DNA of 64,000 nt, from the IMG/VR virus record IMGVR_UViG_3300027126_000148; one strand, 5' to 3'. The notes under the pieces were generated by a model. The model saw only the letters and a program-made list of their open reading frames with translations. It searched no databases and was not told the DNA's origin. The DNA comes from an uncultured virus (IMG/VR IMGVR_UViG_3300027126_000148) (taxonomy: Duplodnaviria; Heunggongvirae; Uroviricota; Caudoviricetes). This document shows positions 12,338 to 64,000 of this stretch, one piece after another (positions within the stretch are counted from its first letter, which is position 1; each line of letters begins with the position of its first letter). The translations under genes and the position numbers were made by a program.

Positions 12338-12356
12338 ATGTCCTTAAACCTAACAA

Positions 12357-28599: not shown

Positions 28600-31500
28600 T
28601 TAATTTAAAGGTCCAAATAATGGGATATAAACTTTATCAGTAGCGTTTGCTCCCGTCATGATAGGCAACCACCCTCTAAGAGTTCTGCCAGCGGTGCCTC
28701 CTGCTGGGCCTTCGATTGAATTTGTTTCTACTCTTATTACAGGATTAGTTGTATCTCCTTTAATATGAAGCCTTGCAGCAGATGGATTAGTTAAACCAAT
28801 TCCAACATTACCATTAGTTTCTAAAGAGTGATAGGTCACCCCTCCTGCTCCTAGCAAAAGCTTATTAGTATCTGTCCTAATAGTAGAGTTACCTGCGCCA
28901 CCATCAGTAGTTCTAGTTGAAGAATTAGTAAACATCGCTAATCCATTAGTGTTACCATCTCTGCGTAATACTAATACTGAATGAGCATTTGCTCCTGCAC
29001 TTAAATTTCTAATAAAGACACCGTTTTCTGCATCTCCACTAGCATAAACATCAAGTCTTCCAACAGCACCATCAGTTCCAATACCAACAAATCCATTGTT
29101 TGCCTGTATACGCATTCTTTCTGTCGCTCCGTTAGCATAAAATCTTAAGTGAGCAGAAGTCGTTCCAGCACTATTGTAGCCAATAAACATTCCGTCGTTG
29201 TAATTATTGCTTTCCGCTCTTATTACTCTACAGTTTAAATACATGTCACCATTACCGCCTCCTGCTGTATTGACAACATCTACGCCATTAAATTTTATTT
29301 TACTAGTTGTTCCAAGAATGTTTATGTCTCCATTTACGGTTAATTTAAAGTTTGGATTTGTGGTGCCAATACCAACTTTATTATTTGCGACTACTAGATC
29401 GCCACTTCCGTATTGACCCATTACAATACTATCATCAGCAAAGACTTCTAGGACTGGAATACCAGCAGAGTTATTAACACTCAATAGAGAGTTACTGAGG
29501 TCATCTACTACTGAGAATATAGTTCCATTAGTTCCATCTGCTCTTATAAGAGTTTGACCAGTAATAGTAGAGTAGATATGTAATTTACCAGTAGGAGTTG
29601 CTGTTCCTACTCCGATATTACCACCTCCTAAGTTAAATAATATATCACTATTTGCACCATTAAAACGAACTCTTGGGGCAGCGTCATTTTCTCCGACTCT
29701 TTGTATTTGTAAATTAGTGGTTCCATTATCTACATAATAATACCAATCAACAGAACCCGCTGTAGTAAACGCCATTCCGTTTTCGCTAGAAGTAGAGCTT
29801 CTATTTAATGCTAAAGAAGTTGCTCCTCCTCCTTGACCATCAATTGTAAAATTACCATCTGTTTTTATTCTTGATGAAGAAATTCTATACAAATTAGCTT
29901 GGGAGTCTGCTCCAAAAGTTATTCCACTTGCGGCAGTTGTTGAACCAGCACCACCAACTGATAAAATAGTGGTTGGATTTGTTAATCCAATGCCAACTCT
30001 ACCCTGATCAGTAAAAGTGACTCTATCATAGAGCGTTCCACCAAATCTAGTAGCAATAGCTAAACCACCGAAACCTCCGCCATTACTGTTTTCATAGACA
30101 CCCCTTATTTGACCAATATCATGAGCGGTATCTGCTATTCTAAAGTTTAATCCAAATCCATAATAACTACCCTGTCCATCATTTGTTGAGATAGTTACAT
30201 ATTTTGGCGAGGCAGAAGCTACTTGAACATCCAATAGACTATATGGACTTGTTGTATTTATGCCTACATTACCACCATCTTTTACTATTAATTTTGTAGA
30301 ATATGAAGTAGTTGGAGTTTGAATCAAAAAGTCACCGTCATCATTTCCCAAGAAAACATTATCATTAGATGAATCTATTAATGATATAAAACAACTAGTA
30401 GCAGAACTTCTGAATGTTCCAACTGTAGACGTTGTCCCACTAACTCTTAAATCACCTAAAACATCCAACTTAAAAGCAGGATTTGTTGTGCCTATACCAA
30501 CATTACCATTGGCGGCTAATCTCATTACTAAATTGCCATCACTTGCAGTCGTCGTTTGGCCTACAGTATTGTTCGTATAAAAATCAAGAAAACCACCTGC
30601 TGTTGTTCTACCTGCACGAATTTCATTTGCTCCATTATTACCAAATATTAAAAATCCTTTTGCTGTAGAGTCAACTCCAAAAGTGGTTAAATATGTACTT
30701 GGATAACTGGTGCTACCCAAGGTTAAGATAGTTGGTGCTGTACCGTATAAATTTAATGTTGATAATGGATTTGTTGTACCTATTCCTACGTTTCCATTCT
30801 CTCTTTTAATATTTAAAACTCTGTTCTGAGCGCTATTTTCATACACTCCAAGAGAAACTACATTATTATCAGCATCATAACCAATATAACCTCCATAACC
30901 AGTAGTTCCGTAAGTGGATCTATCTTCTGAAAATATTATCCTCTTGAAATAAGTATCATTAATATCTAGCACCATCCAAGGGTTACTATTCGAAGCAGTT
31001 CCGCCAATGTGCAATTGAGCTGCTGCATTAGTAGTGCCTATTCCAACATTTCCTGAGAAATATCTATTTCCAACTTGGGTAACTTTTATAACTTTCCATC
31101 CAGAAATACGACAAGCTCTTGTTCCAGTTCCCGCTGTATAGTTGAATAAAGCTAAAGGAGTCCAATATTTTGTACCTGTTTTAAATTGACCAGTTGCTGT
31201 AGCTGAAAATCCACCAATATATCCACTTACTTTTGTCCAAGTAGTTGTTGGATTAGAATTAAGCATTACCCAATAACCATAACTACCGGGATTACCTCCT
31301 AAATCAGCAAAATTATGATCGAAATCTTGGCTTCCCATGTAGTGACCTTGGGATGTTCCTACATTTTGTATCCAACATTCCATGTAGAAAATATCATTAG
31401 TATCTACAGGAATATAAGGAAAACCAGAATCCATAAATCCACCAACATTAACTGCACCATCAATATAAATACAATATCCACCGGGAGCATCAGCTACTGC

Positions 31501-36421: not shown

Positions 36422-39400
36422 TTATTCCATATCCCTTTCAGTTATTAACCTAGAAACGTCCTTACGTTCTGCAAAAATTGTATAATAATAATCATATATA
36501 TTATCATCACTATCTGTATAAATGTACACTTTGTTGTGACCTATTTGATCTACACTGTAGTTTCTTATTTTTCCATCTTTGCGTTTGCCTACTGATGTTA
36601 AATCAACAGTTATTGAATCATCGTGGACTAAACCTGACCAGTAATGAGGTAGATTTATTTCATTATTATTATTTCTGCCTCTGAAGTAAACACCGTTTTC
36701 TGGACCTTCTAGAGATGCATAAATTAATCTCTTTCCAGAAATTGTTGGGTGAACTATATCGAAACTCTTTGTTGTGGCAGCGAAGCTACCATTTACTTGA
36801 AGCCTATATGTAGTATTAACAGCAGTATTTACTCCTACATAAGTGCCATCATCAAAGATTTGGCTATTTGCTATTGATTTGGTGTCATTCCATTTAGTGA
36901 TATAATTGGCAGTACCATTACCAGAAACGAGATTCGCAGCAGTTACATTTCCAACTACTATTAAGTTACCATCTGTTTTAATCGTATCTTCAGCAGACCT
37001 GTATAAATTAGCTTCAGCATCATTTCCAAAGCACATTCCGCTAACAGCAGTAGTTGAACCTGCACCACCAACTGATAATAATGTAATTGGAGAACTTATT
37101 CCTATCCCTACTTTTCCATCTGCTTGTATTCTAACTTTTTCAGTTAAGCTTCCTCCAGTTGCAGTATAAAAAGCGAGATAAGCGTTTTGATCCGCCGCAG
37201 TAGAAGAATAAGTGTTGTGATTTAAAGCTGCAATCCTTGCGCCTCTTGCTATGGTTCCAGCAGTAGTAGTACTAGTTCCACCATAACCTATGTCTAAGTT
37301 TAAAGAAGTTCCACGATTAACAAGTGTATCTGGACCTTGAGCGTTAACTAAAGTTAAAACTGTTGTCCCTTGAGAGCCTATGTTTTGATTTCTTTGTATC
37401 AACAATCCAGAAACAGAAATGGGAGTAAAATTAATATATCTACCATTATTACTAAAAACATGTAATAATCCAGCGGGATCAGTTGTACCGATACCAATGT
37501 TACCATTGCTTAAAATACTTAATCTCTCAACTCCTGCATCGTCATCGATGAAACGTAAACGATCATTTGCTATGATGGTCCATTCACCATCTGAATTTTT
37601 CATCTTAATTCCAGCGTTACCAGCGCTAGAATTTCTTGCGTAAAAGTATGTATTATTAGTATTTAAATCATTATATAAATAAACTTGGTCTCCGCGAACA
37701 TGCAATGCAGCGTCAGGACTTGTTGTGCCAATACCTATATTTGAACTTTGATCAACGAAAATTACACCATTTCCAAAAGCAGTGACATTAGAAACAAAAG
37801 ACGCATCAGTAAGAATAAGAGGAGAATCAATAATAGATCCTTCAAAATACATTTCTGTAGAAGGTTGTCCTCCTGAATCTGATGTTTCTATCGCATGATA
37901 AACTACTCCACCGTATGTGACTTTTACAAGTCTAACGAATCTAGTGCCTATAGCACCTAATCTACTAACTTGAAAAATTTCAGTATTGTAACCTCTGCTA
38001 GAATTTACTTCATAGATATCTACATTATGCCCAGTTCCACTAGTTCCTCTTCTTAGAATTACTTTACCAATTACATAACTTGCTTCAAGAAACCCAGATG
38101 TATAAGCTTTCGCTAAAATTAAATATCCTTTATAAGTTCCTCCTTGAGGGTTTCCTTCTATTGGTATTCTCTGTGCTTTGAAATTAAATAGAGCGCCATC
38201 AGTGGCATAAATGTTTCCTTGAACTTGTAATTTTTCAAGTGGACTAGTCTGACCAATACCAACATTTCCACCGTTAAAGTAAGAAGACGCACTAGCTCTA
38301 ATTTGAAATCCAACTGAAGTAGACGTACCTACCGGAGTATATCCAAAAATACTTGCTCCATTCGTATCGTCACGCATTAATGTTAATACGCGATTTGTGT
38401 CATTGGTAGTATTTACTTTCGATAATATGATACCATTACCATTTGGAGTTCCTATAGCAACAACACCACCCCAATCATTTGTTAGAGTACCAACAGTTAA
38501 TAAACTTGCAGTTGTCCCAGCGATTTGTAATTTAGCATTAGGACTTGTTGTGTCTATACCTACTCTGCCAACAGCAACATCATGATAAAAAGTTGAATTG
38601 TTATCAAAACGCCATTTTTCGGCGTTATAGTTCTGCATTACTTCCGTTATTGATAAAACTCTATTATAAGTTCTAGCAATTGGAATATAACCATTAAAAG
38701 TTTCTACTGTTGTATCTCCTCCTAACCATATCGCTCCTGTACCAACGTTAAATGTACTTACATAAGCAAACGTCGCAGTTAGAACGCCATTTATATAAGT
38801 ATTAATATTAGAAGAAGCATCGGTCGTTACTACTATATGATACCATTTTCCAGCAGTTAAAGTTCCGCAATTATTAGTATTTGGATATACATTCAATACT
38901 CCATTTATAACACCAATTAATGGTCTCTCTATACCTAAGCCACCAGAATCCCAAATTGTATCCCAGCCACTTCCACCAGTAGCGAAAGCGTCTCCATTAA
39001 CCCAAGCTTCCCAAGTATGAGGCAACGCCATTACATAAGAAGCAATTTGCAAGTATGAAGAATTATTTGCAGTATATAAAGAAGTGTTACCATCTTTATT
39101 ACTTATTGTTGCTGCATTAACTAAAGCTAAAGCATAGTTATTATTAGAAAGATCTTTTATTGAAGAAGCAGAAACTACAGAATCAAAACAAGTTTTATTA
39201 TTAAAATCAACATAAAAAGAAAGACCATTTTTTACAATATCATTTCTTTGAGTATAAGCAAATTTTGATCTATTTAAAATATAACCATTAACATCTAATC
39301 TTTCAGCAGGACTTGTTGAACTTATACCGACATTCCCACCTCTTAATATGGTCATCCTTTGAGTAAGGCCACCAGCAACAGTGGGACGAGTATAGAAACC

Positions 39401-42400
39401 TAAAGCATAACCATTGTCTTGAACATCTTCATTATAAGCAGCTATTTGAGCATTATCTTGAAGGACATTTCCAGCAGTTCTTCCTTTGAAAATAATAGAT
39501 GATCCAAAATTAGTAGTAATAGCAGAAGGGTAATCAGAAGTAATTGTTAACATCGGCTGCAAAGTGCCAGAAGTAGCAGGAACTTTATATAATTCTAATA
39601 TTGAATTAGCGGTTACTGTTCCTATACCGACATTGCCTTCATTAGTTATACGAGCAACTTCAACAGGAGCTGTCGCATGAGTTAAAAATCTAATGCCATC
39701 ACGGGATTGAGAAGCTATTTCTAATCCTAAGTAAGCAGTAGCACTTGTTCTAGCAAGACGTAAATAAGCAGTAGCATTAGCAGTGCTATTATTTAATTGC
39801 AAGTTGTAGCCGCAATAACCAACATTTGAAGTCGCATTTCCAAAAACATTGTATCCAAAAGTAGTTGGATTAGTACTAATTGTTCCTATGTTTAAATCTA
39901 GCTTATGATTTGCAGTAATAGTCCCTATGCCGACATTACCACCATTTGGATTTAATAATAATGGATAGTAAGCATCTAAACTAGTTTCATCTGTAGATTG
40001 TATCCATGCGCCTGAGCCCCCTGCTCTAATACCAAAATCTAGAACTGCATTGTCTGTAGTATTACTAATTCTAAATATACCACTTTGGGTCGTACCATTT
40101 AAAGCAGGATTTCCGACAACTCCATCAACTTGTAATTTTTGAGTTGGAGAAATTCCAAGACCTAAAGAATTAGTTACAATTAATGAACCATCTGTTTTAA
40201 TTACATCTTCTGCCGAACGATAAAGATTAGCTTGGGCATCATTTCCAAAACATATTCCACTATCTGGGAGAGTTGAATTTGTTGGCCCAACAGAAAGCAG
40301 ACAATTTGGAGTGTTATTGGTACTCCCAATATGCAAACGCCCTTCTTTATTAAGGACCATTGCGACTCTACCACTTGAATAAAACCAAGTTTGCTGTACA
40401 GAAGCTCCTTGATTAAACAATACTAAACTTGGACTAACGCCTCCTGCCGTTGTTGCATAAGGTCCAATATAAGCAACATTTGTTGGAAGTACAATTCCAA
40501 GCATTGGAACTGCTAATCCTGTAGAAGTAGTAAAAGATATGCCTCCGCCAGAAATATGAACTTTATTAGAAGGATTAGTTATACCAATTCCGACATTACC
40601 ATTACCTAACATTACAAAATCATTTCCAAAATTGGATTTGTAAGCTAATATAGCCAAGTTATTTCCAGTACCTGTGGCATCTGCATCTACCCAATCCCAA
40701 CCATCAGCATAATCATCATTATAACTACTACTATACATGCTTTCCACATATAGCTTAGGCCAATATCCGGGGCCTACTAATACGATACAAACTTTAGGCG
40801 TACCTGAAGAATCCCAGTCTTCAGCAGACAACTTGACTATTGGAGCAAAACTACCTGCTGAACTAATTGCTGGACTATAAAATGTACTATTATAATAATG
40901 CCAACATACCATCAAACTAGCAGCTTCTGCACTATTATATCTGAAACCTTTAATATTAATAGTGAAATCAGCGGCAGGTGAAGCAAAAGGAATTTTTGTT
41001 CTTATCTTTATGAAACTTGGAGTAGCTCCACTATTTATATCTAAACCAATTAACGTAAGTTTGCTGTCATCTCCAAAACTCGCCTCTCCATTAACAGCTA
41101 ATTTTACTGAAGGACTTGTCGTTCCTACACCTACACTACTTTGAAAATAAGTTGGCGTAGTTGAATAACCTGCTATTCTAGAAACAGCTTGATCTGATCC
41201 ATTTCTAACTTCTAAATAACCATCGGCACCAGATTCATAAGCATATATTAATTTAGCAGTACTAGCATATCTTTCTATAATGAAAGTATTTGCACTAATA
41301 GTATTTGGCTTTATATGTAAAGAAGCTGCTGGAGATATTGTACCTACGCCAACATTTCCAGCACTATTAATACGCATGTATTCTACGCCGGTCGCAGAAG
41401 ATGTTTTATCTCTGCCAAATGTTAATGCGTTTACTCCAGAAGGTTGACCAATAAACCAATCAGCTATTCCATACTGAGTCCAAATAGTAAAAGCTCCGTT
41501 TGCTCCTGCTGCTCCAGCATTAAAATTATAGAACTGCGCTAAAACTCCATTAGTAGGATTGTTGGCTTGGAGTTGTAATCTATAGATTGGATTTATTGCG
41601 CCTATGCCTACATCGCCGCTTAAATTGATACGCATTCTTTCATTCGTATCTTCAGAGATGTCAGTATTTAAAGCAGAAATTATGTTAGTATGAAAAGTAA
41701 CGCCCTTATTATAAATTAACTTTATAAAATTACCCTGATCATTTGCACTTGCAAAACGACGAACTTGAGAATTTGCTGTAGGAGACGCTTTTACATTATT
41801 ACCTATGATTGAGGCTGCACTGTTTAATACTTCGCCATAAGCTGCATAACCAAAGACAATATTTTTACCTGCTCCGCCGAAATCTAGAAAATCAGTAGGT
41901 GCATTTGAACTAATTCCAACGAGGCCATTATTTGTTATTCTAACTTTTTCGCTTCCAGTACCTCCATTAGAAGTTCTAAAAGCCATATAAGTATTACCAG
42001 CATCGCTTCTTGCAGAAAGAGTAAATATTCCACCAACTGTATCATAATTTAAGAACCCTGCGTTATCAGTAGGATCAGAGTATGTCCCTGCTGATTTTAT
42101 TTTTAATGTTCCGCTTACATCAAGTTTTTGAGTTGGACTTTCACTACCTATTCCAACGTTTCCAGCGGTCGTGATGCGCATTCTCTCTGCGCCAGCTCCT
42201 CTTGCTCTAAAAATATGAGTAGTATTGTCATAATAATTAGTAGGATCGCTGCTATCTCCTAAATAGATTGATGGAAGTTCTGGATTCCATACTCTATTAT
42301 AAACCGCAAACCTATCAGCAAATGAATAACCACTTAAAGCAATAGTACCATTGACATCTAATCTTGAAACAGGACTTGCAGATCCAATACCTACATTACC

Positions 42401-45400
42401 TTGTTGAGTAACAACAAATTGTCTTGTAGTTTGACCGCTAACATTCCAAACAGCAAAAGTATTATTTGCATCTGCTCCGATTGCGCCTAGTCCTGAGACT
42501 GCACCAATTCTTCCTAAAACTAATTGAATTGAAAAATTATTGGCTTTAATTTCTGCACCATAATTAAGTCTTTTATTGGCGATTGGAACTCCAACTCCCA
42601 ATTGACCAGATACATAAAGATCTGTTCCTATATTTATACTTCCACTTGTTGATAAAGTTGAGGTTACATTAACGCTACCATTTATTCTTGAATCACCAAA
42701 TACTTCAAAAGTATCAGTAGACTGAGAATGAGTACCGAACCTTACTAGATTTATGTATTGATGAGCGACACTTCCTGCTTGCTGCAAATATAAAGGTATA
42801 TTCGCAGAACGATCTACTTTTATAAATCTATGCCTATACAAACCATTTGTATAAGTATCATGATCCATTACTAAACCAAAAACTCCAGAGGCATTTGGAA
42901 ATAAATTAGTATCAGGGACTGTATCTTGATTAGTGAATCCCATGTTTTTCAAGTGTAGTTGACCTGATGGATTGGTTATACCTATTCCAACTGAGCCACC
43001 ATTTGGATTTAATAAAAGTGGATAAGTTGCAGATAAACTAGTTTCATCTGTAGACTGTATCCATGCGCCTAAACCTCCTGCTCTAATACCGAAATCTAAA
43101 ACTGCATTATCTGTTGCGTTACTAATCCTAAATATGCCACTTTGAGTTGTACCATTTAAAGCAGGATTTCCTACTTCTCCATCAACTTGAAGTTTTTGAA
43201 CCGGATTAATTCCAATACCTAAACTGCCATCTGTTTTTAAAGCTCCTAAGGCTGATCTATATAAGTTTGCAGAAGAGTCATTGCCAAAACTCATTCCACT
43301 TACGGCAGCAACAGAAGAAGTTGGACCGACATTCAATAAAGCTGGAGGAGTATTGCCAGCATTTCCTGCTATATTTAAACGACCCTCTTTATTGAGGACC
43401 ATCGCAATTCTGCCGCTAGAATAAAAATAAGTCTGTTGAACAGATGACCCTTGATTAAATACAACTAAAGTTGGAGCATTACCATCTGTAGAAGTAGAGT
43501 AAGGTCCAATGTAGGCTACATTTACAGCAGTAAGACCAATCATTGGTACTGCTAATCCCGTAGATGTAGTAAAAGAAATACCACCACCAGATATATGAAG
43601 TTTATTAGAAGGATCAGTTATTCCTATACCAACATAACCATTATCTCTTAAAATGTTTATGGATCTTTTTTCTACGCTATTCTCATACGTTCCAAGAGAA
43701 ACAGTATTTGCACTAGCATCATAACCAATGTAACCACCATAAGTTGTAGTGCCATATGTTGGTCTTTCTTCTGAGAAAACTATTCTTTTGAAAAAAGTAT
43801 CATTAACATCTAACACCATCCAAGGGTCATTATTGCTTGCGTTACCACCAATATGAATAGGAGCAACGGCATTAACTGTACCAACTCCAACATTCCCTCC
43901 AGAAGTAATACTCATTACAGTATTTCTTCCAGCACCACCGACAGAAGACTCTGTGCTAAAATATAAACTTTGACCGCTGGCCCAATCGAAATAATTTATT
44001 CCACCAAGTCTAAATAAAGAAATTCTAGCATTATTTCCTTCACTAATTAATTCTCCACTTGCTCTAACTGTTCCTATTACATCTAAATTGTAACTAGGAT
44101 TAACCGTGCCTACTCCTACATTTCCTCCACCGGGATTTAATAGTAATGGACCGGCAGTAGTATTTGAAATTACTCCTGTCGTATTTTCCTGAGCTATGTA
44201 TAAATAATCGCTACCTACACCAACACCGTCAGCAGCATCTGGATCTAATATTAAATAAGACCTGCCTCCAGCGAGAGAATCTTTGCCTAATAAATATCCT
44301 CTAGTTCCATCATTACCTACAATATCTGCACTTAGATAAATATTTCCTACTACGTCTAATTTAGCAGATGGATTTGTTTTTCCTATTCCTACAAAATTAT
44401 TTGCTACATTAAAATTAACTGGCGAGGATAATGCATAAATTCCTGTAGAAGCAAAACCAAAGTTTGCTACTTTTGTTTGATACATCCCCCAACCTTGAGA
44501 ATAATCATTCTCTTGCCTTGTGGTTATGCAATCAACAGTAAATCTATAATAGTAATGAACGTCTCCTGTTTGTCCAAAGCAAACATTTATATAATTACTA
44601 GCATCTTTTGCAAGATATTTAGGAGAGCCGTCATTTCCTAAATCAATTAAAGAATAGCTAATAGGTGAGTGACTTGGACCGTAATCATAAAATACAACTT
44701 TAAAATCATAAAGTTTAGCATCACCGTAACCGTATCCTTTAACATGGACAATTGGCATTTCATAAGAGTTACCTATTTGGAAAGGCGTTCTAACGACATA
44801 AGCGCCGTCACTATAATTATCTGAATTGTAAGTGAGAATATTTTTGTACTCTTGAATTGCGGTAGTTCCACTTGCTCTTTGAGAAAATGAACCAGATATT
44901 CTTAATTTAGTATTTGGGCTTGCAGTTCCAATTCCAACATTGCCACCGCCTAGATTAAATAGGACATTACTATTTTCTCCGTCGAATCTTACTCTTGGAG
45001 CAGAATCAATTTCAGAAGATCTTTGGATTTGTAAATTATTATTACCATTATCAACATAGAAATACCAATCAGTTGAACCGGCTGTATTAAAAGCCATTCC
45101 ATTTTCAGAGGAAGTAGAACTTCTATTTAATACTAAAGAAGTACTACCCCCGCCTTGACCATCAATCGTGAAATTACCATCTGTTTTTATTCTTGAGCTA
45201 GATATCCTATATAAATTAGCTTGAGAATCTGCTCCAAAAGTTATACCGCTTGTAGCAGAAGTAGAACCCGCACCTCCAACTGATAAAAGAGTAGCTGGAG
45301 CTGCATTTCCTATTCCAACTCTGCCATTTTGCTGAAACCTAACTGTTTCAGTTCCACCGGGAGCAAAGATAAATTTGTTTGCTGTACCCTGACTATAATT

Positions 45401-45931
45401 TGATACAAATGTTAAAGTATTATCTCCAGCAGAGCTATGATATATTTGAGAATTTTGATTGGCGACAGCATTTCCTAACTGTATGCCGCCATTATAAGCA
45501 GGATTTCCAGCGAACGATTGAAATATTGCAGTTATAACTGCATCATCTGCTCCTTTAACTTCTAGTTTAGCAGCAGGGCTTGTTGTTCCTATCCCAATGC
45601 CTGTTCCTAAATCATAAATACTTCCAGTAAGTAATTCTTTTGTATTACTCCAGCGAGCAACATAATTTGCTACTCCAGATCCAGAAACAAAATTTCCATT
45701 AACATACCCACTAAGAGAATCGATCCTATTATTTAATAAAGTTCCAGTAGCCGCAATTTGCCCACTTAATAAAGAAAGATCAGCATTGTTTGAATCCGCT
45801 TGCCACATTACGCCAGAAGACGTAGATGTCAGCACATAACCATTTGCGCCTATGTTATTGCTAACATCAAATACAAATCCAGAAATTGCAATTCCCGTCG
45901 TGAGAATTTCATCTATAGCGAATTGAGCCAT
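36422..45931 (-). CDS. Giant tail fibre-like protein with GNVGIGT repeats, a LamG module and a C-terminal intramolecular chaperone-like domain
   Basis: 3169 aa; GNVGIG repeats; C-terminal TKSFDIVHP...YASLEGPENGVYFRG resembles autocleaving fibre chaperones. Confidence 0.85.
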   Translation of the reverse strand: MAQFAIDEILTTGIAISGFVFDVSNNIGANGYVLTSTSSGVMWQADSNNADLSLLSGQIAATGTLLNNRIDSLSGYVNGNFVSGSGVANYVARWSNTKELLTGSIYDLGTGIGIGTTSPAAKLEVKGADDAVITAIFQSFAGNPAYNGGIQLGNAVANQNSQIYHSSAGDNTLTFVSNYSQGTANKFIFAPGGTETVRFQQNGRVGIGNAAPATLLSVGGAGSTSATSGITFGADSQANLYRISSSRIKTDGNFTIDGQGGGSTSLVLNRSSTSSENGMAFNTAGSTDWYFYVDNGNNNLQIQRSSEIDSAPRVRFDGENSNVLFNLGGGNVGIGTASPNTKLRISGSFSQRASGTTAIQEYKNILTYNSDNYSDGAYVVRTPFQIGNSYEMPIVHVKGYGYGDAKLYDFKVVFYDYGPSHSPISYSLIDLGNDGSPKYLAKDASNYINVCFGQTGDVHYYYRFTVDCITTRQENDYSQGWGMYQTKVANFGFASTGIYALSSPVNFNVANNFVGIGKTNPSAKLDVVGNIYLSADIVGNDGTRGYLLGKDSLAGGRSYLILDPDAADGVGVGSDYLYIAQENTTGVISNTTAGPLLLNPGGGNVGVGTVNPSYNLDVIGTVRASGELISEGNNARISLFRLGGINYFDWASGQSLYFSTESSVGGAGRNTVMSITSGGNVGVGTVNAVAPIHIGGNASNNDPWMVLDVNDTFFKRIVFSEERPTYGTTTYGGYIGYDASANTVSLGTYENSVEKRSINILRDNGYVGIGITDPSNKLHISGGGISFTTSTGLAVPMIGLTAVNVAYIGPYSTSTDGNAPTLVVFNQGSSVQQTYFYSSGRIAMVLNKEGRLNIAGNAGNTPPALLNVGPTSSVAAVSGMSFGNDSSANLYRSALGALKTDGSLGIGINPVQKLQVDGEVGNPALNGTTQSGIFRISNATDNAVLDFGIRAGGLGAWIQSTDETSLSATYPLLLNPNGGSVGIGITNPSGQLHLKNMGFTNQDTVPDTNLFPNASGVFGLVMDHDTYTNGLYRHRFIKVDRSANIPLYLQQAGSVAHQYINLVRFGTHSQSTDTFEVFGDSRINGSVNVTSTLSTSGSINIGTDLYVSGQLGVGVPIANKRLNYGAEIKANNFSIQLVLGRIGAVSGLGAIGADANNTFAVWNVSGQTTRQFVVTQQGNVGIGSASPVSRLDVNGTIALSGYSFADRFAVYNRVWNPELPSIYLGDSSDPTNYYDNTTHIFRARGAGAERMRITTAGNVGIGSESPTQKLDVSGTLKIKSAGTYSDPTDNAGFLNYDTVGGIFTLSARSDAGNTYMAFRTSNGGTGSEKVRITNNGLVGISSNAPTDFLDFGGAGKNIVFGYAAYGEVLNSAASIIGNNVKASPTANSQVRRFASANDQGNFIKLIYNKGVTFHTNIISALNTDISEDTNERMRINLSGDVGIGAINPIYRLQLQANNPTNGVLAQFYNFNAGAAGANGAFTIWTQYGIADWFIGQPSGVNALTFGRDKTSSATGVEYMRINSAGNVGVGTISPAASLHIKPNTISANTFIIERYASTAKLIYAYESGADGYLEVRNGSDQAVSRIAGYSTTPTYFQSSVGVGTTSPSVKLAVNGEASFGDDSKLTLIGLDINSGATPSFIKIRTKIPFASPAADFTINIKGFRYNSAEAASLMVCWHYYNSTFYSPAISSAGSFAPIVKLSAEDWDSSGTPKVCIVLVGPGYWPKLYVESMYSSSYNDDYADGWDWVDADATGTGNNLAILAYKSNFGNDFVMLGNGNVGIGITNPSNKVHISGGGISFTTSTGLAVPMLGIVLPTNVAYIGPYATTAGGVSPSLVLFNQGASVQQTWFYSSGRVAMVLNKEGRLHIGSTNNTPNCLLSVGPTNSTLPDSGICFGNDAQANLYRSAEDVIKTDGSLIVTNSLGLGISPTQKLQVDGVVGNPALNGTTQSGIFRISNTTDNAVLDFGIRAGGSGAWIQSTDETSLDAYYPLLLNPNGGNVGIGTITANHKLDLNIGTISTNPTTFGYNVFGNATSNVGYCGYNLQLNNSTANATAYLRLARTSATAYLGLEIASQSRDGIRFLTHATAPVEVARITNEGNVGIGTVTANSILELYKVPATSGTLQPMLTITSDYPSAITTNFGSSIIFKGRTAGNVLQDNAQIAAYNEDVQDNGYALGFYTRPTVAGGLTQRMTILRGGNVGISSTSPAERLDVNGYILNRSKFAYTQRNDIVKNGLSFYVDFNNKTCFDSVVSASSIKDLSNNNYALALVNAATISNKDGNTSLYTANNSSYLQIASYVMALPHTWEAWVNGDAFATGGSGWDTIWDSGGLGIERPLIGVINGVLNVYPNTNNCGTLTAGKWYHIVVTTDASSNINTYINGVLTATFAYVSTFNVGTGAIWLGGDTTVETFNGYIPIARTYNRVLSITEVMQNYNAEKWRFDNNSTFYHDVAVGRVGIDTTSPNAKLQIAGTTASLLTVGTLTNDWGGVVAIGTPNGNGIILSKVNTTNDTNRVLTLMRDDTNGASIFGYTPVGTSTSVGFQIRASASSYFNGGNVGIGQTSPLEKLQVQGNIYATDGALFNFKAQRIPIEGNPQGGTYKGYLILAKAYTSGFLEASYVIGKVILRRGTSGTGHNVDIYEVNSSRGYNTEIFQVSRLGAIGTRFVRLVKVTYGGVVYHAIETSDSGGQPSTEMYFEGSIIDSPLILTDASFVSNVTAFGNGVIFVDQSSNIGIGTTSPDAALHVRGDQVYLYNDLNTNNTYFYARNSSAGNAGIKMKNSDGEWTIIANDRLRFIDDDAGVERLSILSNGNIGIGTTDPAGLLHVFSNNGRYINFTPISVSGLLIQRNQNIGSQGTTVLTLVNAQGPDTLVNRGTSLNLDIGYGGTSTTTAGTIARGARIAALNHNTYSSTAADQNAYLAFYTATGGSLTEKVRIQADGKVGIGISSPITLLSVGGAGSTTAVSGMCFGNDAEANLYRSAEDTIKTDGNLIVVGNVTAANLVSGNGTANYITKWNDTKSIANSQIFDDGTYVGVNTAVNTTYRLQVNGSFAATTKSFDIVHPTISGKRLIYASLEGPENGVYFRGRNNNNEINLPHYWSGLVHDDSITVDLTSVGKRKDGKIRNYSVDQIGHNKVYIYTDSDDNIYDYYYTIFAERKDVSRLITERDME

Positions 45932-58386: not shown

Positions 58387-59497
58387 TTAACACCTCGTCC
58401 TCTGAAATTCCTAAGATACGGCACTTGATTTCATCCATTGTAGAGAGGCGATCTATTTCATTCTTTACCATCGCCTTTCTCCTTTCAGCAAGTTTTAATA
58501 ATTGCATACGAGATTCTTCTTCTTTCCACATTTGAACTAGATTAAGGATGCTGGCGTTCTCTTTTATTTGCTTGCTAAGACGATCACTTCGCTTTACCTT
58601 AAGGTCATTAAGAAGTTTTTGTTGGCGAATGGTCGATTGGTTATATTCGTCTCTTGCTCCACTGATTGCTTCAATGAGAGCCATTGGCAATTTGCCGCCG
58701 CCATCAATTTCTACATCAATTTGATTTTGAAGAGTTTGAATTGTCTCTTGAATATTAGCAGAGATAACTACTTCAGTAGCTAGAACAATGTATTGATCTA
58801 CTTCTTCTTGAGTGAGGTCTGGTTTATCAAATGTATAACGAACAAAAGAGCTTTCAAATAACTCACGATCAATGTTAGAAGAGTAACTATTTATCTGATG
58901 CAAGAAACGATAAGTGTGCATGTATCCAATGATAGCATTAACAGAAGCCTTCTGGCGTGAAGTGACTTTATCTTTATCAATACCTTCATGAACATACTTG
59001 TTGATTCGAAAAAGCATGCGCTCAAAAGTCTTTGGCGGCATGTATTGAGAATCTGCAAGACTCTCTGTATCTCTTTGTGAGACTGGACCTGCTTGAATTA
59101 CTTTCTGGTCAAGAGTCTTAATGAAATCAATTACAGTACGAGTTTCTTGACTGAGGCTAGTAAGGTTTTGATTATTGAAAATACTTTTAGTAATCTCAAG
59201 TGCGCCCATTGAACCTGCATTGTTAGCAGTAAACTCTTTTTGTTCTGGAGATAGTTCAATCTTATCTTTTGCCAAGTACTCATACGAAGCCCTTGCTTTA
59301 ATTTGTCTTGTGGATAAGAACTCTTTAACTTTCTTGCCGTGCCAACTTCTACCGTCTGCGCCTTCAATGTTAGGAAAAGCAACCCTAACAAGTTCAAGCA
59401 AAGAAGGAGGATTAGTAGGGCGATTGTTCCACTCATTTAAAATTGCCAGTCGCTGTTGGTCATTAAGTTCTTGAGGTTGGTTTTCATTTTCAGCCAT
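58379..59497 (-). CDS. Hypothetical protein (candidate terminase small subunit/DNA-binding)
   Basis: 372 aa, helical with C-terminal coiled coil, upstream of terL; function inferred from position only. Confidence 0.5.
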   Translation of the reverse strand: MAENENQPQELNDQQRLAILNEWNNRPTNPPSLLELVRVAFPNIEGADGRSWHGKKVKEFLSTRQIKARASYEYLAKDKIELSPEQKEFTANNAGSMGALEITKSIFNNQNLTSLSQETRTVIDFIKTLDQKVIQAGPVSQRDTESLADSQYMPPKTFERMLFRINKYVHEGIDKDKVTSRQKASVNAIIGYMHTYRFLHQINSYSSNIDRELFESSFVRYTFDKPDLTQEEVDQYIVLATEVVISANIQETIQTLQNQIDVEIDGGGKLPMALIEAISGARDEYNQSTIRQQKLLNDLKVKRSDRLSKQIKENASILNLVQMWKEEESRMQLLKLAERRKAMVKNEIDRLSTMDEIKCRILGISEDEVLNG

Positions 59498-60182
59498 AAA
59501 TTTCTACTTCTCCATTCACAATGCACTTCTTAGCTTTTACAAGTATAGAACGCTTTAAGTTCTTTATTTGCTTGTATCCGGGGGAACGATTCTTTTCAGT
59601 GGTCTTGAATCCTAGAACTTTTGCAACTTCTTCTTCTCTCTGATTTCTCAAGCAAAGCATTTCATAAACTATCCACTCTGCTGGCTTTAATACTTTTCTT
59701 AATGCTGATGATAAACTCTGAGTACTTCTTAGAAGGTCAAAACCTTCGTTAGTCATGTCGTGAACTTCTTTAATATGATTCTCAAGAGGGAGGGTTACTT
59801 TTGTATTGAAAGCGTCTTTCTTATTGTTTTCCCAATGAGCATACAAGGGGCACTTCTTACACTGTTCTCCATATATTGAACAAGAATCATCCCACTCTGC
59901 CGCCGCACACTTCAAACAAGGTCTGGCATAATTACCATAGTTGTTTCTTATAATGTTTTTTATTTGATTGGATATGATAATGTTTAACCAAGGGGCAAGG
60001 GGTTTTTTCTGATCGTATAGACTCCATTTTTTATAAATATGAATCCTCAATATCTGCTCAACGTCCTCGAAATCAATCCAAGACAATGCGGCAAGGTTCC
60101 ACTTGTTTTTGCGTTTGCGAATTTCTTCGTCTACGATAGCAATGTTCTTTTCAAAGGTTTCTTTTTGGACTTTTTGAGCCAT
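59490..60182 (-). CDS. Phage sigma70-family factor with Cys-rich insertion
   Basis: DFEDVEQ...W-x-x-YD...L-x-PWL-x-x-I-x-x-NQIKN (region 2); L-x-x-x-E...EEEVAKVLG (region 4 HTH). Confidence 0.75.
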   Translation of the reverse strand: MAQKVQKETFEKNIAIVDEEIRKRKNKWNLAALSWIDFEDVEQILRIHIYKKWSLYDQKKPLAPWLNIIISNQIKNIIRNNYGNYARPCLKCAAAEWDDSCSIYGEQCKKCPLYAHWENNKKDAFNTKVTLPLENHIKEVHDMTNEGFDLLRSTQSLSSALRKVLKPAEWIVYEMLCLRNQREEEVAKVLGFKTTEKNRSPGYKQIKNLKRSILVKAKKCIVNGEVEIYG

Positions 60183-60183
60183 T

Positions 60184-60585
60184 TTATTTTTGCCTTAATG
60201 TACCGGCTTCTTTTTTAAACATTTTAAGAGTATCTTTTACAGAGAGACCTTCTGCTCCTCTTGCTCCAAAACCTGCCATGCTGTCTGGCATTGTTGCGGC
60301 AATCTTTGCAAGAGATTCTTTTCTTGGGCCTTCCGCTTGATACTCAACTTCTAAACCATTTTTTAAATCAGGAATTGATGCATCATTTTCTTCATCATCG
60401 CTTTCATCATCGTCCTGCTCGTCATACTCTTCTTGAGCGCGAACTTTGTTTTCTCTTGCCTTTTTATCTTGTGGCTTTTCTACGATAACACCATAGAATG
60501 CTGTGCCACACGCAGAGCAAAACTTTGGCTTTGCTTGAGCGTACAAATTAGGATTTCCACATTGAGAGCAGTAAATTTTTTGCAT
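60184..60585 (-). CDS. Zinc-ribbon protein
   Basis: YCSQCG...KFCSACG; acidic tract. Confidence 0.8.
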   Translation of the reverse strand: MQKIYCSQCGNPNLYAQAKPKFCSACGTAFYGVIVEKPQDKKARENKVRAQEEYDEQDDDESDDEENDASIPDLKNGLEVEYQAEGPRKESLAKIAATMPDSMAGFGARGAEGLSVKDTLKMFKKEAGTLRQK

Positions 60586-60598
60586 AATTCATTAATTT

Positions 60599-60627
60599 AT
60601 TATAGTTTAATAACGGTAAAAAAGCAA
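60599..60627 (-). promoter_or_regulatory. sigma70-type promoter TTGCTT-17bp-TATAAT
   Basis: Perfect -10 with 17-bp spacer, 13 nt upstream of the zinc-ribbon/sigma operon ATG. Confidence 0.7.
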
Positions 60628-60643
60628 GTGTAATTGTAATAGA

Positions 60644-60919
60644 ATGAAGTATTCATTTAAGAATTACGAAAAAGTTGAATACACCATTAATTGGGTCAAA
60701 CCCCCTAAAGGGTGCTACGGTATATGCGATTCCCCAGAGATGGAGAATCCAAAGATAAAGATTGACCCTAAATTAACCAAACAAAAGACAGTCAACATTC
60801 TAATACATGAAGTATTACACGCATTTTTCTGGCAAGAATCAGAAACAAAAGTAACTAAATGCGCGAACACTTTATCAAGACTCATCCACCAAAGGATGAA
60901 ACAAAAGTTTAATGAATGA
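60644..60919 (+). CDS. Small HEXXH metallopeptidase-like protein
   Basis: G-x-C...I-x-ID...ILIHEVLHA...E; upstream GTGTAATTG at 60628-60636. Confidence 0.75.
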   Translation: MKYSFKNYEKVEYTINWVKPPKGCYGICDSPEMENPKIKIDPKLTKQKTVNILIHEVLHAFFWQESETKVTKCANTLSRLIHQRMKQKFNE

Positions 60920-61631
60920 TTGACTTGTATTTAGTAATCTTATCAACAATAAAGCGAGTAATACCACTTCTCATAATATCTTCTTGCCCAAGCTTAAAGT
61001 ATTGAATGCCATTGTCTCGGCTATCTTGGTCTTGGAAGATATCACAGAACTCTTTGAACCCAGACTTCTTGCCTAGGTCATTTTGCATAATAGTATCACC
61101 ACAAATAAATAGCTTACTAAATTTACCCATTCGGGTTGCCGCCGTTACAAGAGAATCAAACATCATGTTCTGACCCTCATCCAAAATAACGGAATTAACG
61201 TTAAAGGTATAGCCGCGAAGCAGAGAAACAGGGTAAGTTTTGATCCTTTCTTGCTTATTTAGTAATTCGATGCTGGATTTATTTAGTAATTCTTCTAGCT
61301 TATCAAATAGAGGTACGTTATAGAAGAAAGTCTTTTCGTCTAAGTCGCCAGTTAAGAAGCCAGTTTGACCATCTGTGCTTTGAATTAGGGATCGGATATA
61401 TACAATATCAGAAATCTTTTTAGCCTTTAGTAATTCTAGCGAGCAATAAACACTCAGTAGAGTCTTGGCTGTGCCGGGAAGCCCATCTAGAATGATTATA
61501 TTAGTAGACTTGTCTAAGGCCGCTTGAATAATTTGTTCTTGTTTCGGGGTCCATTTTAATTTACGAATTTCAAAGTCATCTTTTACTTTGTCTTTTTGAG
61601 AAACGTGGGGGGAGTTATCTTTTTTTGACAT
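60909..61631 (-). CDS. phoH: PhoH-family ATPase
   Basis: GLPGTAKT, GFLTGD, LRGYTF, ILDEGQN, TRMG, GD-x-x-Q-x-D, DIMRS. Confidence 0.92.
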   Translation of the reverse strand: MSKKDNSPHVSQKDKVKDDFEIRKLKWTPKQEQIIQAALDKSTNIIILDGLPGTAKTLLSVYCSLELLKAKKISDIVYIRSLIQSTDGQTGFLTGDLDEKTFFYNVPLFDKLEELLNKSSIELLNKQERIKTYPVSLLRGYTFNVNSVILDEGQNMMFDSLVTAATRMGKFSKLFICGDTIMQNDLGKKSGFKEFCDIFQDQDSRDNGIQYFKLGQEDIMRSGITRFIVDKITKYKSIIH

Positions 61632-61672
61632 TTTAATTAGCCTTACTATTTTAATTACATGTATTATATATA

Positions 61673-62014
61673 ATGAGGAACAAATTTCAAGTTACAGTTG
61701 TGAACCCCAAGACTTGCAGGAAGAAGATTCGTTGTGAGGGGTGCGAACTGGCGTATAGTAAAGAGGATTATTTATTATTCTTCACTGTTCGTAAGCTTGT
61801 TTATTTTAATATGATTGCTGAAGATGGGAAGCAAATGAAGATTTGCGACTCTTGTTTAGTGTCTCTCGCTTCGATGACTTGCGCGAAATATGATTTACCA
61901 TATATTACTATTATAATTAAAGGCGAGGAAAATACAAAACAAATAAATATCGAGTATAGTGGAGACAAATCTTTTGAGCAAGAATTACTAAAAGTCTTTA
62001 ACAAGATCAATTAA
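61673..62014 (+). CDS. Hypothetical Cys-containing protein
   Basis: 113 aa; CEGC and CDSC pairs; divergent from phoH. Confidence 0.6.
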   Translation: MRNKFQVTVVNPKTCRKKIRCEGCELAYSKEDYLLFFTVRKLVYFNMIAEDGKQMKICDSCLVSLASMTCAKYDLPYITIIIKGEENTKQINIEYSGDKSFEQELLKVFNKIN

Positions 62015-62500
62015 TTTTTGCCGCGATTCTTCTGTTCTCTGATCTGGAGTAGTGATATTTTTATAATACTGCATTACTCCAATCATAGAATTAATATTGT
62101 TTTTATTTTTTAATGCATTACCTTCGAAAGAGACAATCTTAACATTGTCTGGTACATAGCCCTTATTTGGGTCTATCCTATCTAATGATGCAGATCTTTT
62201 ATTATCTACTCCTGACTTATATAGTATTTCGCAGCCCAAAATGGGGCAGATATTATTTTTAATCTTTATTAAATCCGCAAGAGTGAGGTTGAACTCTATA
62301 TTTTTCTTTTTTGAACGCATCTTGGCGGCTCTCAATATTACTTTTCTTAAATAGTAATTTTCGCCATCCATAGGGTCTTCCATTTTTTCCTTTTGTCTCT
62401 CGTATTCTAGAGAATAACAACAAGTATTGCACTTGTCTTTTGATCTACTGAATTCTGTATCTTCTTTCTCAGCTTGACACACAGAACATTTGATTAACAT
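61988..62500 (-). CDS. HNH-like endonuclease with zinc-binding motifs
   Basis: CSVC...CNTC; CPILG...SLDRIDP-x-KGY-x-x-DNV...N-x-x-K; upstream GTGTAGATA at 62507-62515. Confidence 0.75.
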   Translation of the reverse strand: MLIKCSVCQAEKEDTEFSRSKDKCNTCCYSLEYERQKEKMEDPMDGENYYLRKVILRAAKMRSKKKNIEFNLTLADLIKIKNNICPILGCEILYKSGVDNKRSASLDRIDPNKGYVPDNVKIVSFEGNALKNKNNINSMIGVMQYYKNITTPDQRTEESRQKLIDLVKDF

Positions 62501-62847
62501 TAGATATATCTACACAAGCTATATCTAAAAAAGGTATTTTTTGGGAAGGGCTCCGGGGATTTTTTGACCTTGCAAACTCTTCAGGTCTTCCTTTTGGTCT
62601 TATTTTTTGAGAAATAGGGGGGTCTTATATAGGGATAGATATTAATACATAGACAGATAGAATAGTAAGTATTTAGTAATTAAGGATAGAATGATAGATT
62701 CTTTTAATTGGTATATTAATAAAAGAAGGTTTTATTGATTAAGGGCAGAATGATTTTTAGACCCCCCCGCCCCCGTATTTGAAAAGTCTCTGGCAATATT
62801 TTCATAAATTGGGGGCAATGTCAATAGCATTTTCTGGCAATCTTCGC

Positions 62848-62877
62848 AAAAAAAATCCCCCTCTTTCGAAGGGGATT
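62848..62877 (-). terminator. Intrinsic terminator after the 141-aa gene
   Basis: AATCCCC...GGGGATT stem followed by T8 on the minus strand. Confidence 0.8.
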
Positions 62878-62896
62878 CGATTGACTTTCGCTCGCC

Positions 62897-63322
62897 TTAG
62901 TCGGCCAGATTGGCGACATCTTCAACGGGGAACGTGAGGAACTTAGGCGGAGTCTTTGCCTTTTTGTAAAGGGTAATCGTCGCCAGTTCTTCAGCGGTAG
63001 CAGGACGACCGTCCACAAGATAGCCAATCGTCTTCATGGCAGAAGACGGAAGCGCGGCAACGTAGTGACGACCAGTAACAGGGTGCTTGACCAGTCCGGG
63101 CTTGACCCAGACGAACCACGGCTTGTCACCGGGTGCGTCTTCATGGCGATTCCCGTAGGAATCAGGACCGGCCAATGTCACAACCACGCGGTGATTCTTC
63201 ATCACGCGGCCAAGTAAAGGGTTCAAAGGAAGGCCAGATCTGCCGCCTGTCTTCATGGAATGTTCCCCACGAAGGAGAACTGTGCAGATGCTACCTGCAC
63301 GAATTTTATTGAGGTCAATCAT
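62897..63322 (-). CDS. Hypothetical protein (probable early gene)
   Basis: 141 aa, GC-richer codons, followed by a terminator; clear paralogue at 63726+. Confidence 0.85.
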   Translation of the reverse strand: MIDLNKIRAGSICTVLLRGEHSMKTGGRSGLPLNPLLGRVMKNHRVVVTLAGPDSYGNRHEDAPGDKPWFVWVKPGLVKHPVTGRHYVAALPSSAMKTIGYLVDGRPATAEELATITLYKKAKTPPKFLTFPVEDVANLAD

Positions 63323-63423
63323 GATGCGTTGGTTTTTTAGTGCCGCTCACTCGCGACGGAAAGAGAGTCGCACGGTTCCCATTTGATTGCAACCCACTTT
63401 CTCAAATAATTTTCGCCCCTAGG

Positions 63424-63625
63424 CTGGCACACTCTTTGCTCCCCAGCACGTTTCATGCCAAGTCTAGGTTGGCACACTCTTTGCTCCCCAGCAAGTCCCA
63501 TGCCAAGTCCGTGGAAAGGATAGTTTCCCAATCTGGGGTCCCCAATTCGAAAAACTATCGTCGCCCATAGCTTGGCATGATTCCTGCTCTGGCATGGTTC
63601 CTGCTCCCAGCATAGACTATGCCAA
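63424..63625. promoter_or_regulatory. Cluster of seven sigma54-type -24/-12 elements
   Basis: YTGGCA[CT]-N5-NTGCT with exact GG-N10-GC spacing; four on plus, three on minus. Confidence 0.7.
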
Positions 63626-63725
63626 GTGCCCGTTAACGTAGAAAATTAAAGTAGATTTACTTCTCGTATATATATAAGTACATGTTAAATTGTCATAGTC
63701 AGTTTGGCTCTTATATAAATACAAC

Positions 63726-64000
63726 ATGATTAATATAAATACAATCAAGGCGGGGCATATTGCTACTGTTTTGATGCAGGGTGAATATAAATTAAACACT
63801 GGCGGTCGCTCCGGTCTTCCCTTGAATGAATACAAGGGTCGTGTGACAAGAGCTTATCGTTTTGCGATAACGCTTGCGGGTGAGGAAACGTATAACAATA
63901 AATACCCTGATTCAGTCGGCAAACCTAATTGGTTTGAGTTTGTGAAGGATGGTGTTGTTAAACATAAGACTACCGGCCAATTGTATTTGGCTGGGCTTCC
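63726..64000 (+). CDS. Hypothetical protein, paralogue of 62897-63322 (3' truncated by window)
   Basis: Not in the ORF track; translates as MININTIKAGHIATVLMQGEYKLNTGGRSGLPLNEYKGRV...TLAG...WF...VKH-x-x-TG-x-x-YLAGL. Confidence 0.85.
   Translation, partial: MININTIKAGHIATVLMQGEYKLNTGGRSGLPLNEYKGRVTRAYRFAITLAGEETYNNKYPDSVGKPNWFEFVKDGVVKHKTTGQLYLAGL

Follow-up and report, generated by a model that had tools for sequence, protein, structure and literature searches.

The window analyzed here, a stretch of 64,000 nucleotides from an uncultured tailed virus (IMG/VR record IMGVR_UViG_3300027126_000148), covers most of the structural arm of a large river phage, whose complete genome would be ∼150 kb as judged from completeness estimates. 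Nearly all of its genes lie on the minus strand, and they include those for the large terminase (TerL), PhoH and an HNH endonuclease (61988–62500). A GC-rich island (62850–63640; 45–61% GC compared with ∼35% for the genome) holds one gene, a terminator and an array of seven short bipartite elements, boxes 1 to 7, which resemble the elements of sigma-54 promoters and are the subject of this report. The gene of the island (62897–63322, minus strand) codes for a protein of 141 amino acids (aa) with a predicted small all-beta fold. Across the array, an AT-rich paralog of this gene (63726–64000, plus strand) runs past the window end and is present in full-length form in the related record L002. The divergent genes named in an initial annotation, made from the letters of this DNA, thus exist and are paralogs, with 47 of 91 residues identical (52%; E 1e-35).

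The seven boxes are 17-mers of the form YTGGCA-N7-TGCT within 63424–63625, four on the plus and three on the minus strand. Box 1 (63424–63440, plus, CTGGCACACTCTTTGCT) is directed away from the 141-aa gene and faces box 2 (63445–63461, minus, TTGGCATGAAACGTGCT) over CCCC (63441–63444); box 2 is directed to the 141-aa gene, with a predicted start at ∼63434. Box 3 (63469–63485, plus, TTGGCACACTCTTTGCT) likewise faces box 4 (63490–63506, minus, TTGGCATGGGACTTGCT) over CCCC (63486–63489). Box 4 lies 13 nucleotides (nt) from a 39-bp palindrome that we call HP (63520–63558) and is directed away from it and to the 141-aa gene (predicted start ∼63479). On the far side of HP, again at 13 nt, box 5 (63572–63588, plus, TTGGCATGATTCCTGCT) is directed away from HP and to the AT-rich paralog (predicted start ∼63599); it is abutted in tandem by box 6 (63589–63605, plus, CTGGCATGGTTCCTGCT; predicted start ∼63616), which faces box 7 (63609–63625, minus, TTGGCATAGTCTATGCT) over CCC (63606–63608). 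Box 7 is the closest to the AT-rich paralog and is directed away from it. The boxes are spaced by 17–25 bp within the array, and in all seven the GG and GC dinucleotides lie 10 bp apart inside TGGCA and TGC. A pattern scan returned exactly the seven sites that the initial annotation had placed, on the same strands, and its three pairs facing each other across 3–4 C residues are the CCCC, CCCC and CCC junctions given above. Its argument that head-to-head sites cannot both fire is a matter of geometry: with centers ∼20 bp apart, the two partners would not both be able to hold holoenzyme.

The clustering is far from random. The pattern TGGCA-N7-TGCT has seven matches in the window, all of them in the ∼200-bp array, where 0.56 would be expected, and none of 100 dinucleotide shuffles reached seven. 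With the looser pattern TGGCAYR-N5-TGCW and at most one mismatch there are 13 matches against a chance mean of 5.48; the six outside the array each carry a mismatch and each lie in coding DNA, and their number is at chance level.

Relatives carry the same boxes. The 141-aa protein occurs at 90–92% identity at six IMG/VR loci on six contigs, and further relatives were found by pattern. The core pattern matches five related records 40 times, and a reversed control gave no match; 39 of these matches fall in one 3–4 kb zone per record; G007 has nine matches, eight of them at the locus, and G008 ten, nine at the locus. We aligned 21 array rows from relatives, selected by the two HP-adjacent boxes only. 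AGCA, TGCCAA, TTGGCA and TGCT are invariant in this alignment and the 7-nt spacers differ, and because of how the rows were selected the conservation of the outer boxes is an independent result. At the position of box 3, for example, L069 has the spacer TGGTTCC where the window has CACTCTT, with both boxes intact. The constant GG-N10-GC frame and varying spacers that had been noticed in the window are therefore also found in related phages, where boxes are kept while spacers turn over, and together with the window counts this supports the proposed −24/−12 element as a specific and selected motif. One relative, G001, is 100% identical to 60000–62655 and ends there, before the GC-rich island, and several other related contigs end in or beside arrays, which suggests assembly breaks caused by repeats or strain variation. 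A DNA search of GenBank phages with 62700–64000 gave no match.

Sigma-54 promoters are textbook knowledge; their consensus is YTGGCACGrNNNTTGCW, and glnAp2 and pspA are examples. Sigma-70-family promoters have established spacers of 16–18 nt, so that the 7-nt spacing of the boxes does not suit a factor of that family. The key sigma-54 positions named in a passage of Bonocora et al. 2015 (PMC4591121) are GG and TGC. As to the free positions, a Y precedes TGG in all 40 clade sites (36 T, 4 C), TGGCA is followed by Y and then R, and the base after TGC is T in 39 sites. A second set of 111 distinct sites from 65 independent and unrelated viral loci, chosen by the two boxes only, has C58/T46 at position 6, G71/A32 at position 7 and T at position 12 in 64 sites, in agreement with TGGCAC-G...TTGC. 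The bipartite motif thus recurs in at least 65 unrelated viral loci of 36–65% GC. Sites for sigma-54 holoenzyme would be the most economical reading, because one motif in phages of such different composition points to a reader common to many bacteria.

Another phage or host DNA-binding protein could in principle read two short boxes one helical turn apart, which would make the boxes operators and their sigma-54 likeness a coincidence or mimicry, with the 141-aa family as the candidate self-regulating reader. The arrays do adjoin this gene family in three lineages, namely this clade, G008 and G009 (where the copy, P0012, is a 56%-identical homolog). In the clade the T of TTGC is not conserved and an additional Y at position 11 is; moreover, a spacing of 17–25 bp suits small proteins better than a 450-kDa holoenzyme, and the host may be without rpoN. 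However, the motif occurs with sigma-54-like free positions in at least 65 unrelated viral loci, and G010, G011 and the complete phage G012 have no 141-aa homolog, which is better explained by a universal host reader. The AF2 model of the 141-aa protein (pLDDT 82) is a small beta barrel without a recognizable DNA-binding fold; Foldseek found nothing in the PDB at E ≤ 0.001, and the best VIA-align hit, to Tudor, KOW or BAH-like barrels, has Z 5.8 over 65 residues, which is below a meaningful level. The protein belongs to no Pfam or PHROG family, none of its 20 homologs has a function name, and ESM Atlas features (≤0.87) point to no family. Pfam has no match in seven more proteins of the relatives (four of the 141-aa family and three from other GC-rich cassettes), and a Sigma54_DBD-like protein was found in none of five related fragments. 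We regard an operator of this kind as unlikely.

The palindrome HP reads ATAGTTT-N25-AAACTAT around a GGGG-N-CCCC center. Members of the same family occur in almost every spacer of a ∼10-kb region of small genes beyond the window end, always in one orientation; their center is GGGG-N-(G/C)CCC, and the copies inside box arrays have the symmetric GGGG-N-CCCC. In an alignment of 44 copies (window, L067, L068, L069 and L070), 14 of the 39 columns are invariant, and covariation is 0.133 compared with 0.147 in shuffles, 451 of 500 of which were at least as high. HP as a structured RNA was rejected with covariation inside the range of the shuffles (DNA folding z-score −1.5). Since its sequence is conserved with no covariation beyond shuffles, a site for a protein or a repeat prone to recombination is a likelier identity for HP than a structured RNA. 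Two other RNA candidates were set aside as well. A short RNA running from a reverse box through HP folds weakly (RNA z −1.4 and −2.3) and has its predicted start inside an HP arm. The mirror pairs themselves fold weakly as hairpins (−5.2, −7.3 and −8.3 kcal/mol as DNA), with 7×7 internal loops and unpaired spacers, and single boxes exist. No Rfam family reaches its gathering score in the window, L067 or L068.

Maps of the relatives show a common spacer order in the small-gene region: a conserved CAAATAA, a terminator hairpin, HP and a promoter. This composite terminator-plus-promoter module is repeated between accessory genes (44 aligned spacers from five records and the window). CAAATAA stands directly before the terminator of many small genes (L067, L068, L070) and would give stop codons to any gene joined upstream, as in a shuffling module. 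Three versions of the module can be distinguished. Most small-gene spacers carry a sigma-70-type promoter, TTGACA, 16–17 nt, TGnTAAGGT. Spacers of GC-rich cassettes have HP, 5–7 nt, one box directed into HP, a conserved 40 nt that holds a GTGAC-RAA-TCAC palindrome, TTGATT-N17-GACAAT and the gene; in these single-box cassettes the only box is thus oriented away from the gene, and such single boxes recur beside more GC-rich cassettes just past the window end in relatives. In the 141-aa family the order is HP, 13 nt, a box toward the gene, 3–8 nt that in most cases are a run of C or G, a mirror box, ∼100 nt and ATG, with a second box pair in some copies. Because of this order, the box closest to the gene is always directed away from it. 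Palindromes of the form GTGA-N4-TCAC flank the modules, as tagtgatttatcacta just upstream of many HP copies and as gtgacRaatcac between the reverse box and the sigma-70-like promoter (L067 5932–6110 and 6508–6680, L068 8207–8400, and equivalents in L069 and L070); they may be the operator of some regulator.

In L070 and L071 the two paralogs stand in tandem, each with its own HP and box pair. The window, L067 and L069 have the opposite orientation of the segment that lies between the two HP copies. This inverted segment carries the AT-rich paralog and its box pair: L067rc 11983–12547 matches L070rc 13334–12785 in reverse (compared over 11952–12956 and 12567–13347). The flanks are collinear up to the HP copies, and both endpoints lie at HP; this is the one rearrangement that we have mapped in detail. 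The bidirectional look of the array thus arises because an inversion between HP palindromes left two modules sharing one HP. What had been described as a dense bidirectional array does consist of seven sites on both strands, but it is two ordinary upstream modules joined by inversion rather than a designed unit. A switch between the divergent genes, which had been offered as one possible function, becomes doubtful, as the sister genomes have both genes in tandem, each with its own module; a weaker point is that both genes are present in RNA libraries as contigs that begin near their start codons.

These rearrangements bring up a different kind of function, in which mirror pairs and HP would be DNA elements of cassette exchange or replication, either recombination hot spots at cassette borders or iterons by the AT-rich stretch 63640–63720, with no role for RNA polymerase. 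Several observations fit: the endpoints of the inversion at two HP copies, the gene content between HP/box modules, which differs among close relatives, the conserved CAAATAA with its stop codons at which modules begin, and a likeness to the PeSL cassettes of T4-type phages as these are outlined in part of PMC4122927. The HNH endonuclease gene adjoins the island, and the cumulative GC skew ceases to fall near 61–64 kb. Nevertheless, homologous recombination at any repeat would explain the inversion with no special function for the boxes, and the breakpoints are at HP, not at boxes. Single and tandem boxes exist as well, and there is no reason to expect that sites of recombination or iterons would retain a sigma-54 consensus across unrelated phages. 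We consider this explanation improbable.

Mirror pairs are typical of phages and nearly absent from bacteria. IMG/VR contains 116 stretches with face-to-face pairs (gap 3–8 nt, exact pattern), 91 with back-to-back and 14 with tandem pairs. In 596 Gb of bacterial and archaeal species genomes we found only 19 stretches, all on contigs of metagenome-assembled or uncultured genomes and each with a single pair, and most of these have bases at positions 6–7 that sigma-54 sites avoid. Bacteria carry many sigma-54 promoters, so that a high density of promoters does not by itself produce the mirrored form. The 80 viral loci that were retrieved contain 105 pairs; 89 of these have a gap of 3, 4 or 5 nt, and in 48 the gap consists of C only or of G only. 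The gene context of pairs in unrelated contigs was not used: crude calls of open reading frames (ORFs) put 35 of 56 inside ORFs of 70–300 aa and were too unreliable. A literature search, limited in subscription journals, returned nothing on phages with mirrored sigma-54 boxes or with arrays of such boxes.

The densest arrays are in more distant phages. G010 and G011 share nine early-region ORFs with this phage at 33–68% identity, and ∼10 kb of each carries 32 boxes (G010; L316, 14000–23600) or 27 boxes (G011; L317, 21000–31600), with four or five per spacer. In each of two L317 spacers that we read, a hairpin of high stability (the two folded stretches gave −41 and −44 kcal/mol) separates a back-to-back pair from a face-to-face pair, beyond which lies the next gene; the first spacer also has a sigma-70-like promoter after its face-to-face pair. 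In both phages the box closest to the gene is again directed away from it. The GC-rich cassettes may have come from phages like G010 and G011, control regions included. G012 is a complete phage of 202,880 bp with direct terminal repeats and has box pairs ∼1.7 and 6.6 kb from its right end (L295, 194500–202880). Three viral contigs that were retrieved only through an exact 17-mer match (L013, L031 and L032) also have sigma-54-type boxes of both orientations clustered near that match.

An origin of this kind raises the question of whether the boxes are inert passengers, remnants of a donor phage's regulatory region that arrived with the GC-rich cassettes and have yet to decay. They are confined to GC-rich cassettes of imported appearance, and G010 and G011 with their many boxes could be donors. 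Relics, on the other hand, would not explain boxes that stay invariant while the intervening spacers are replaced, nor arrays that stay beside one gene family down to 56% protein identity. We think it very improbable that the boxes are inert.

No activator for the boxes came to light. Sigma54_activat (PF00158) was found in none of nine related fragments and Sigma54_DBD in none of five, and a Pfam scan of 41 window ORFs found no sigma-54 activator or sigma-54 family, the three giant ORFs having been scanned with PHROGs only. The related records are fragments of 7–45% estimated completeness, and the absence of an activator from the phage or its host is not proven by them. A phage-encoded enhancer-binding protein, one of the things that the initial annotation had suggested looking for, was thus not found in the scanned window ORFs or the nine fragments, and its decoy proposal fits this result as silent docking does. 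As a control, Sigma54_DBD was detected in 6 of 14 model genomes, and not in those of Synechococcus, Corynebacterium, Thermus and Deinococcus.

Fifteen riverine RNA libraries hold parts of 62800–64000, and contigs of four of them (X1–X4) were compared with the window. Contigs at 100% identity cover the GC-rich gene (62891–63345, 62896–63345, 62873–63200, 62890–63075 and 63055–63332) and the AT-rich gene (63728–64000, 63734–63974 and 63744–64000). Those of X1 and X2 end at 63345, and not at 63434 or 63479; they extend 23 nt upstream of the ATG and would need another 89 nt to reach the predicted start of box 2. No X1–X4 contig lies on 63346–63727 or 62000–62872, and the uncovered part proves nothing. 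The contigs hint at proximal promoters for the flanking genes, but only weakly, because they show neither ends nor strand and because the runs may be from one campaign. Candidates for such promoters can be read from the DNA, and both are absent from the list of a consensus scan. For the GC-rich gene there is a weak, putative sigma-70-like promoter at 63364–63392 (minus; TTGCAA, 17 nt, GACTCT), where sister cassettes have TTGATT-N17-GACAAT; for the AT-rich paralog a putative sigma-70-like promoter at 63690–63721 (plus; TTGTCA, 16 nt, TATATAAATA) ends 5 nt before the ATG.

With module anatomy, activator search and RNA at hand, another explanation can be weighed, that the boxes are working activator-dependent sigma-54 promoters. 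The HP-adjacent boxes would fire outward into the paralogs, HP would be a shared enhancer for a host activator, and the mirror partners would give antisense or divergent transcripts. The forward boxes do aim at the genes and would give leaders of ∼110 nt; HP is placed symmetrically, 13 nt from both and centered ∼60 bp upstream of their predicted starts. In G012, single boxes lie 100–130 nt upstream of ORFs on the same strand. Phage YuA is reported to depend on sigma-54-type promoters (a passage of PMC10914365, citing Ceyssens 2008), and E. coli sigma-54 promoters are silent until their activator is induced, according to a part of PMC4591121, so that RNA from the field may miss them. HP is not a dedicated enhancer, however, because almost all spacers with a plain sigma-70-type promoter and no box contain it too. 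The box closest to the gene is always directed away from it, in single-box cassettes the lone box would fire into HP, and bacteria, for all their sigma-54 promoters, have almost no mirror pairs. The fragments searched contain no activator gene and, as a weak point, two RNA contigs end short of the predicted start. We consider it unlikely that the boxes are working promoters, although less so than for the operators discussed above.

As to the host, TerL has at most 24% identity to Bacillus and Microcystis phages and PhoH 34% identity to cyanophages, none of these cultured phages being a close relative, and the 141-aa protein has no match in GenBank phages or in 185,579 species genomes. The window has no tRNA genes, and the cyanobacterial HIP1 octamer has 0 matches compared with 0.1 expected, which is uninformative. 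A Shine-Dalgarno (SD)-like tetramer is present in 8 and absent in 36 of 44 window genes (in the 19-nt stretch 4–22 nt upstream of the start codon). Leaders in the window are A/T-rich, and several start codons stand 5–6 nt past a TATAAA-like hexamer. These features suggest leaderless or SD-independent translation in this phage, which bears on the identity of the host.

The reading that we favor, tentatively and at a little less than an even chance, is that the boxes are real but mostly silent docking sites for sigma-54 polymerase in a mobile regulatory cassette. They would dock the host sigma-54 holoenzyme, or sigma-54 itself, and the polymerase would mostly sit in closed complexes and not fire; to our knowledge, no other sigma factor of bacteria keeps polymerase parked on DNA in this way. 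We infer silence because mirror partners ∼20 bp apart exclude each other, because the stretch to melt, just downstream of TGCT, is G/C-rich (both in the clade and in the 111-site set) and because no activator gene was seen. Transcription of the flanking genes would come from sigma-70-type promoters close to each of them, and the parked complexes would be a conditional brake on the cassette or a boundary for it. Over all replicating copies of the genome, these complexes would together also form a sink for sigma-54. There is a precedent in E. coli, where a part of PMC4591121 describes sigma-54 holoenzyme as bound but inactive at most sites.

Several points weigh against silent docking. Few SD tetramers fit Bacteroidota, which have rpoN, but they also fit Cyanobacteria, which do not. 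The host may thus be one without rpoN, and since sigma-54 is not universal in bacteria this is the main risk. In the clade the T of TTGC is not preferred (T15, C12, G7 and A6 of 40), and a Y stands at position 11 in its place. That HP and the sigma-70-like promoter lie at fixed distances from the boxes may be due to common descent of a repeated module and not to function. The forward boxes, oriented and with a ∼110-nt leader like ordinary sigma-54 promoters, may fire in conditions that were not sampled. Finally, the relevant passage of Bonocora et al. (PMC4591121) reports single intragenic sigma-54 sites in E. coli that have no roadblock effect, which weakens the brake or boundary part of the mechanism.

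A bolder form of silent docking, which we find doubtful, would make the mirror-paired boxes a phage-specific class of cis element for non-transcribing capture of sigma-54 polymerase. The members of a pair would block each other, the G/C junction would resist melting, cassette borders would be marked and insulated, and sigma-54 would be drained from the stress regulons of the host. Such an element would travel with its cassettes, with 32 and 27 boxes in ∼10 kb of the distant relatives and 7–10 per genome in the clade. That the arrangement serves the phage is suggested by its presence in hundreds of viral contigs compared with almost no bacterial genomes.

Elsewhere in the window there are three giant minus-strand ORFs, one matching tape-measure families (2264–12337, 3357 aa) and two matching tail-fiber families (28600–36417, 2605 aa, and 36422–45931, 3169 aa). 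A 230-aa protein (59490–60182, minus) has Sigma70_r2 as its sole match, which is borderline (23.6 bits, cut-off 24), and may be a minimal phage sigma factor for late genes. We also tried TATAAATA as a T4-type late promoter and dropped it; it has 17 matches where 9.5 are expected, and these are not placed before genes.

Phage morons are accessory genes with their own promoter and terminator and a deviant base composition, a concept of Hendrix and colleagues. The island 62850–63640 is moron-like because it is a GC-rich insert of one gene with its own terminator, an 11-pair hairpin with a T run (62878–62853, minus strand; tail TTTTTGCGAA) that a terminator scan placed at the end of the GC-rich gene. 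It also has its own upstream control region, within which a promoter is predicted. It differs from a moron in that the inserted gene is a paralog of its resident neighbor and not a foreign function, and in that its control region is a sigma-54 box array.

PeSLs, mobile regulatory cassettes of T4-type phages, were reportedly described by Arbiol et al. 2010. In the part of Comeau et al. 2014 (PMC4122927) that deals with them, they are short terminator-plus-promoter modules between small accessory genes of a hyperplastic region and are points of genetic exchange. Their counterpart here would be the terminator, HP and promoter, with an inversion that ends at HP copies. They consist of sigma-70 early promoters with a stem-loop and are not described there with sigma-54 boxes or a 39-bp palindrome conserved in sequence. 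By analogy, PeSL cassettes would explain the modular layout.

The boxes share with bacterial sigma-54 promoters the GG and GC 10 bp apart, T/C before TGG, C/T and then G/A after TGGCA, T/A after TGC, and an intergenic position. They differ in standing in mirror pairs 3–8 bp apart, in a gene-proximal box that is directed away, in a G/C-rich melting region and in the unpreferred T of TTGC, and neither an activator gene nor a dedicated enhancer was found in the scanned ORFs and fragments. Inactive and intragenic E. coli sites, as presented in part of PMC4591121, likewise have a strong consensus; those sites hold holoenzyme and make no RNA, as the boxes here would under silent docking. They are single, mostly inside genes and on a host chromosome, and the boxes described here are clustered, mirrored, intergenic and on a phage. 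A decoy role for inactive E. coli sites is discussed as a possibility in the same source (Bonocora et al. 2015). Pseudomonas phage YuA resembles the present phage as a phage that has no RNA polymerase of its own and has sigma-54-type elements for the host enzyme (PMC10914365). Its promoter region was confirmed by promoter trap and 5′-end mapping (citing Ceyssens 2008), and arrays or mirror pairs are not mentioned in that passage.

Sigma-54 promoters, the sigma-54-type promoters of YuA and silent E. coli sites are thus known, and mirrored box arrays on phage DNA appear to be new. The locus shows that a 39-bp palindrome can flip regulatory modules and so produce symmetric arrays that appear designed. 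It is also a good test case, with a short module of defined anatomy, natural variants (tandem and inverted, single and paired) and two flanking genes that are both present in environmental RNA libraries. If the boxes do dock polymerase that mostly stays silent, phages would be using a host transcription factor in a way that is new for viruses, to set up a boundary, brake or sink in place of a promoter.

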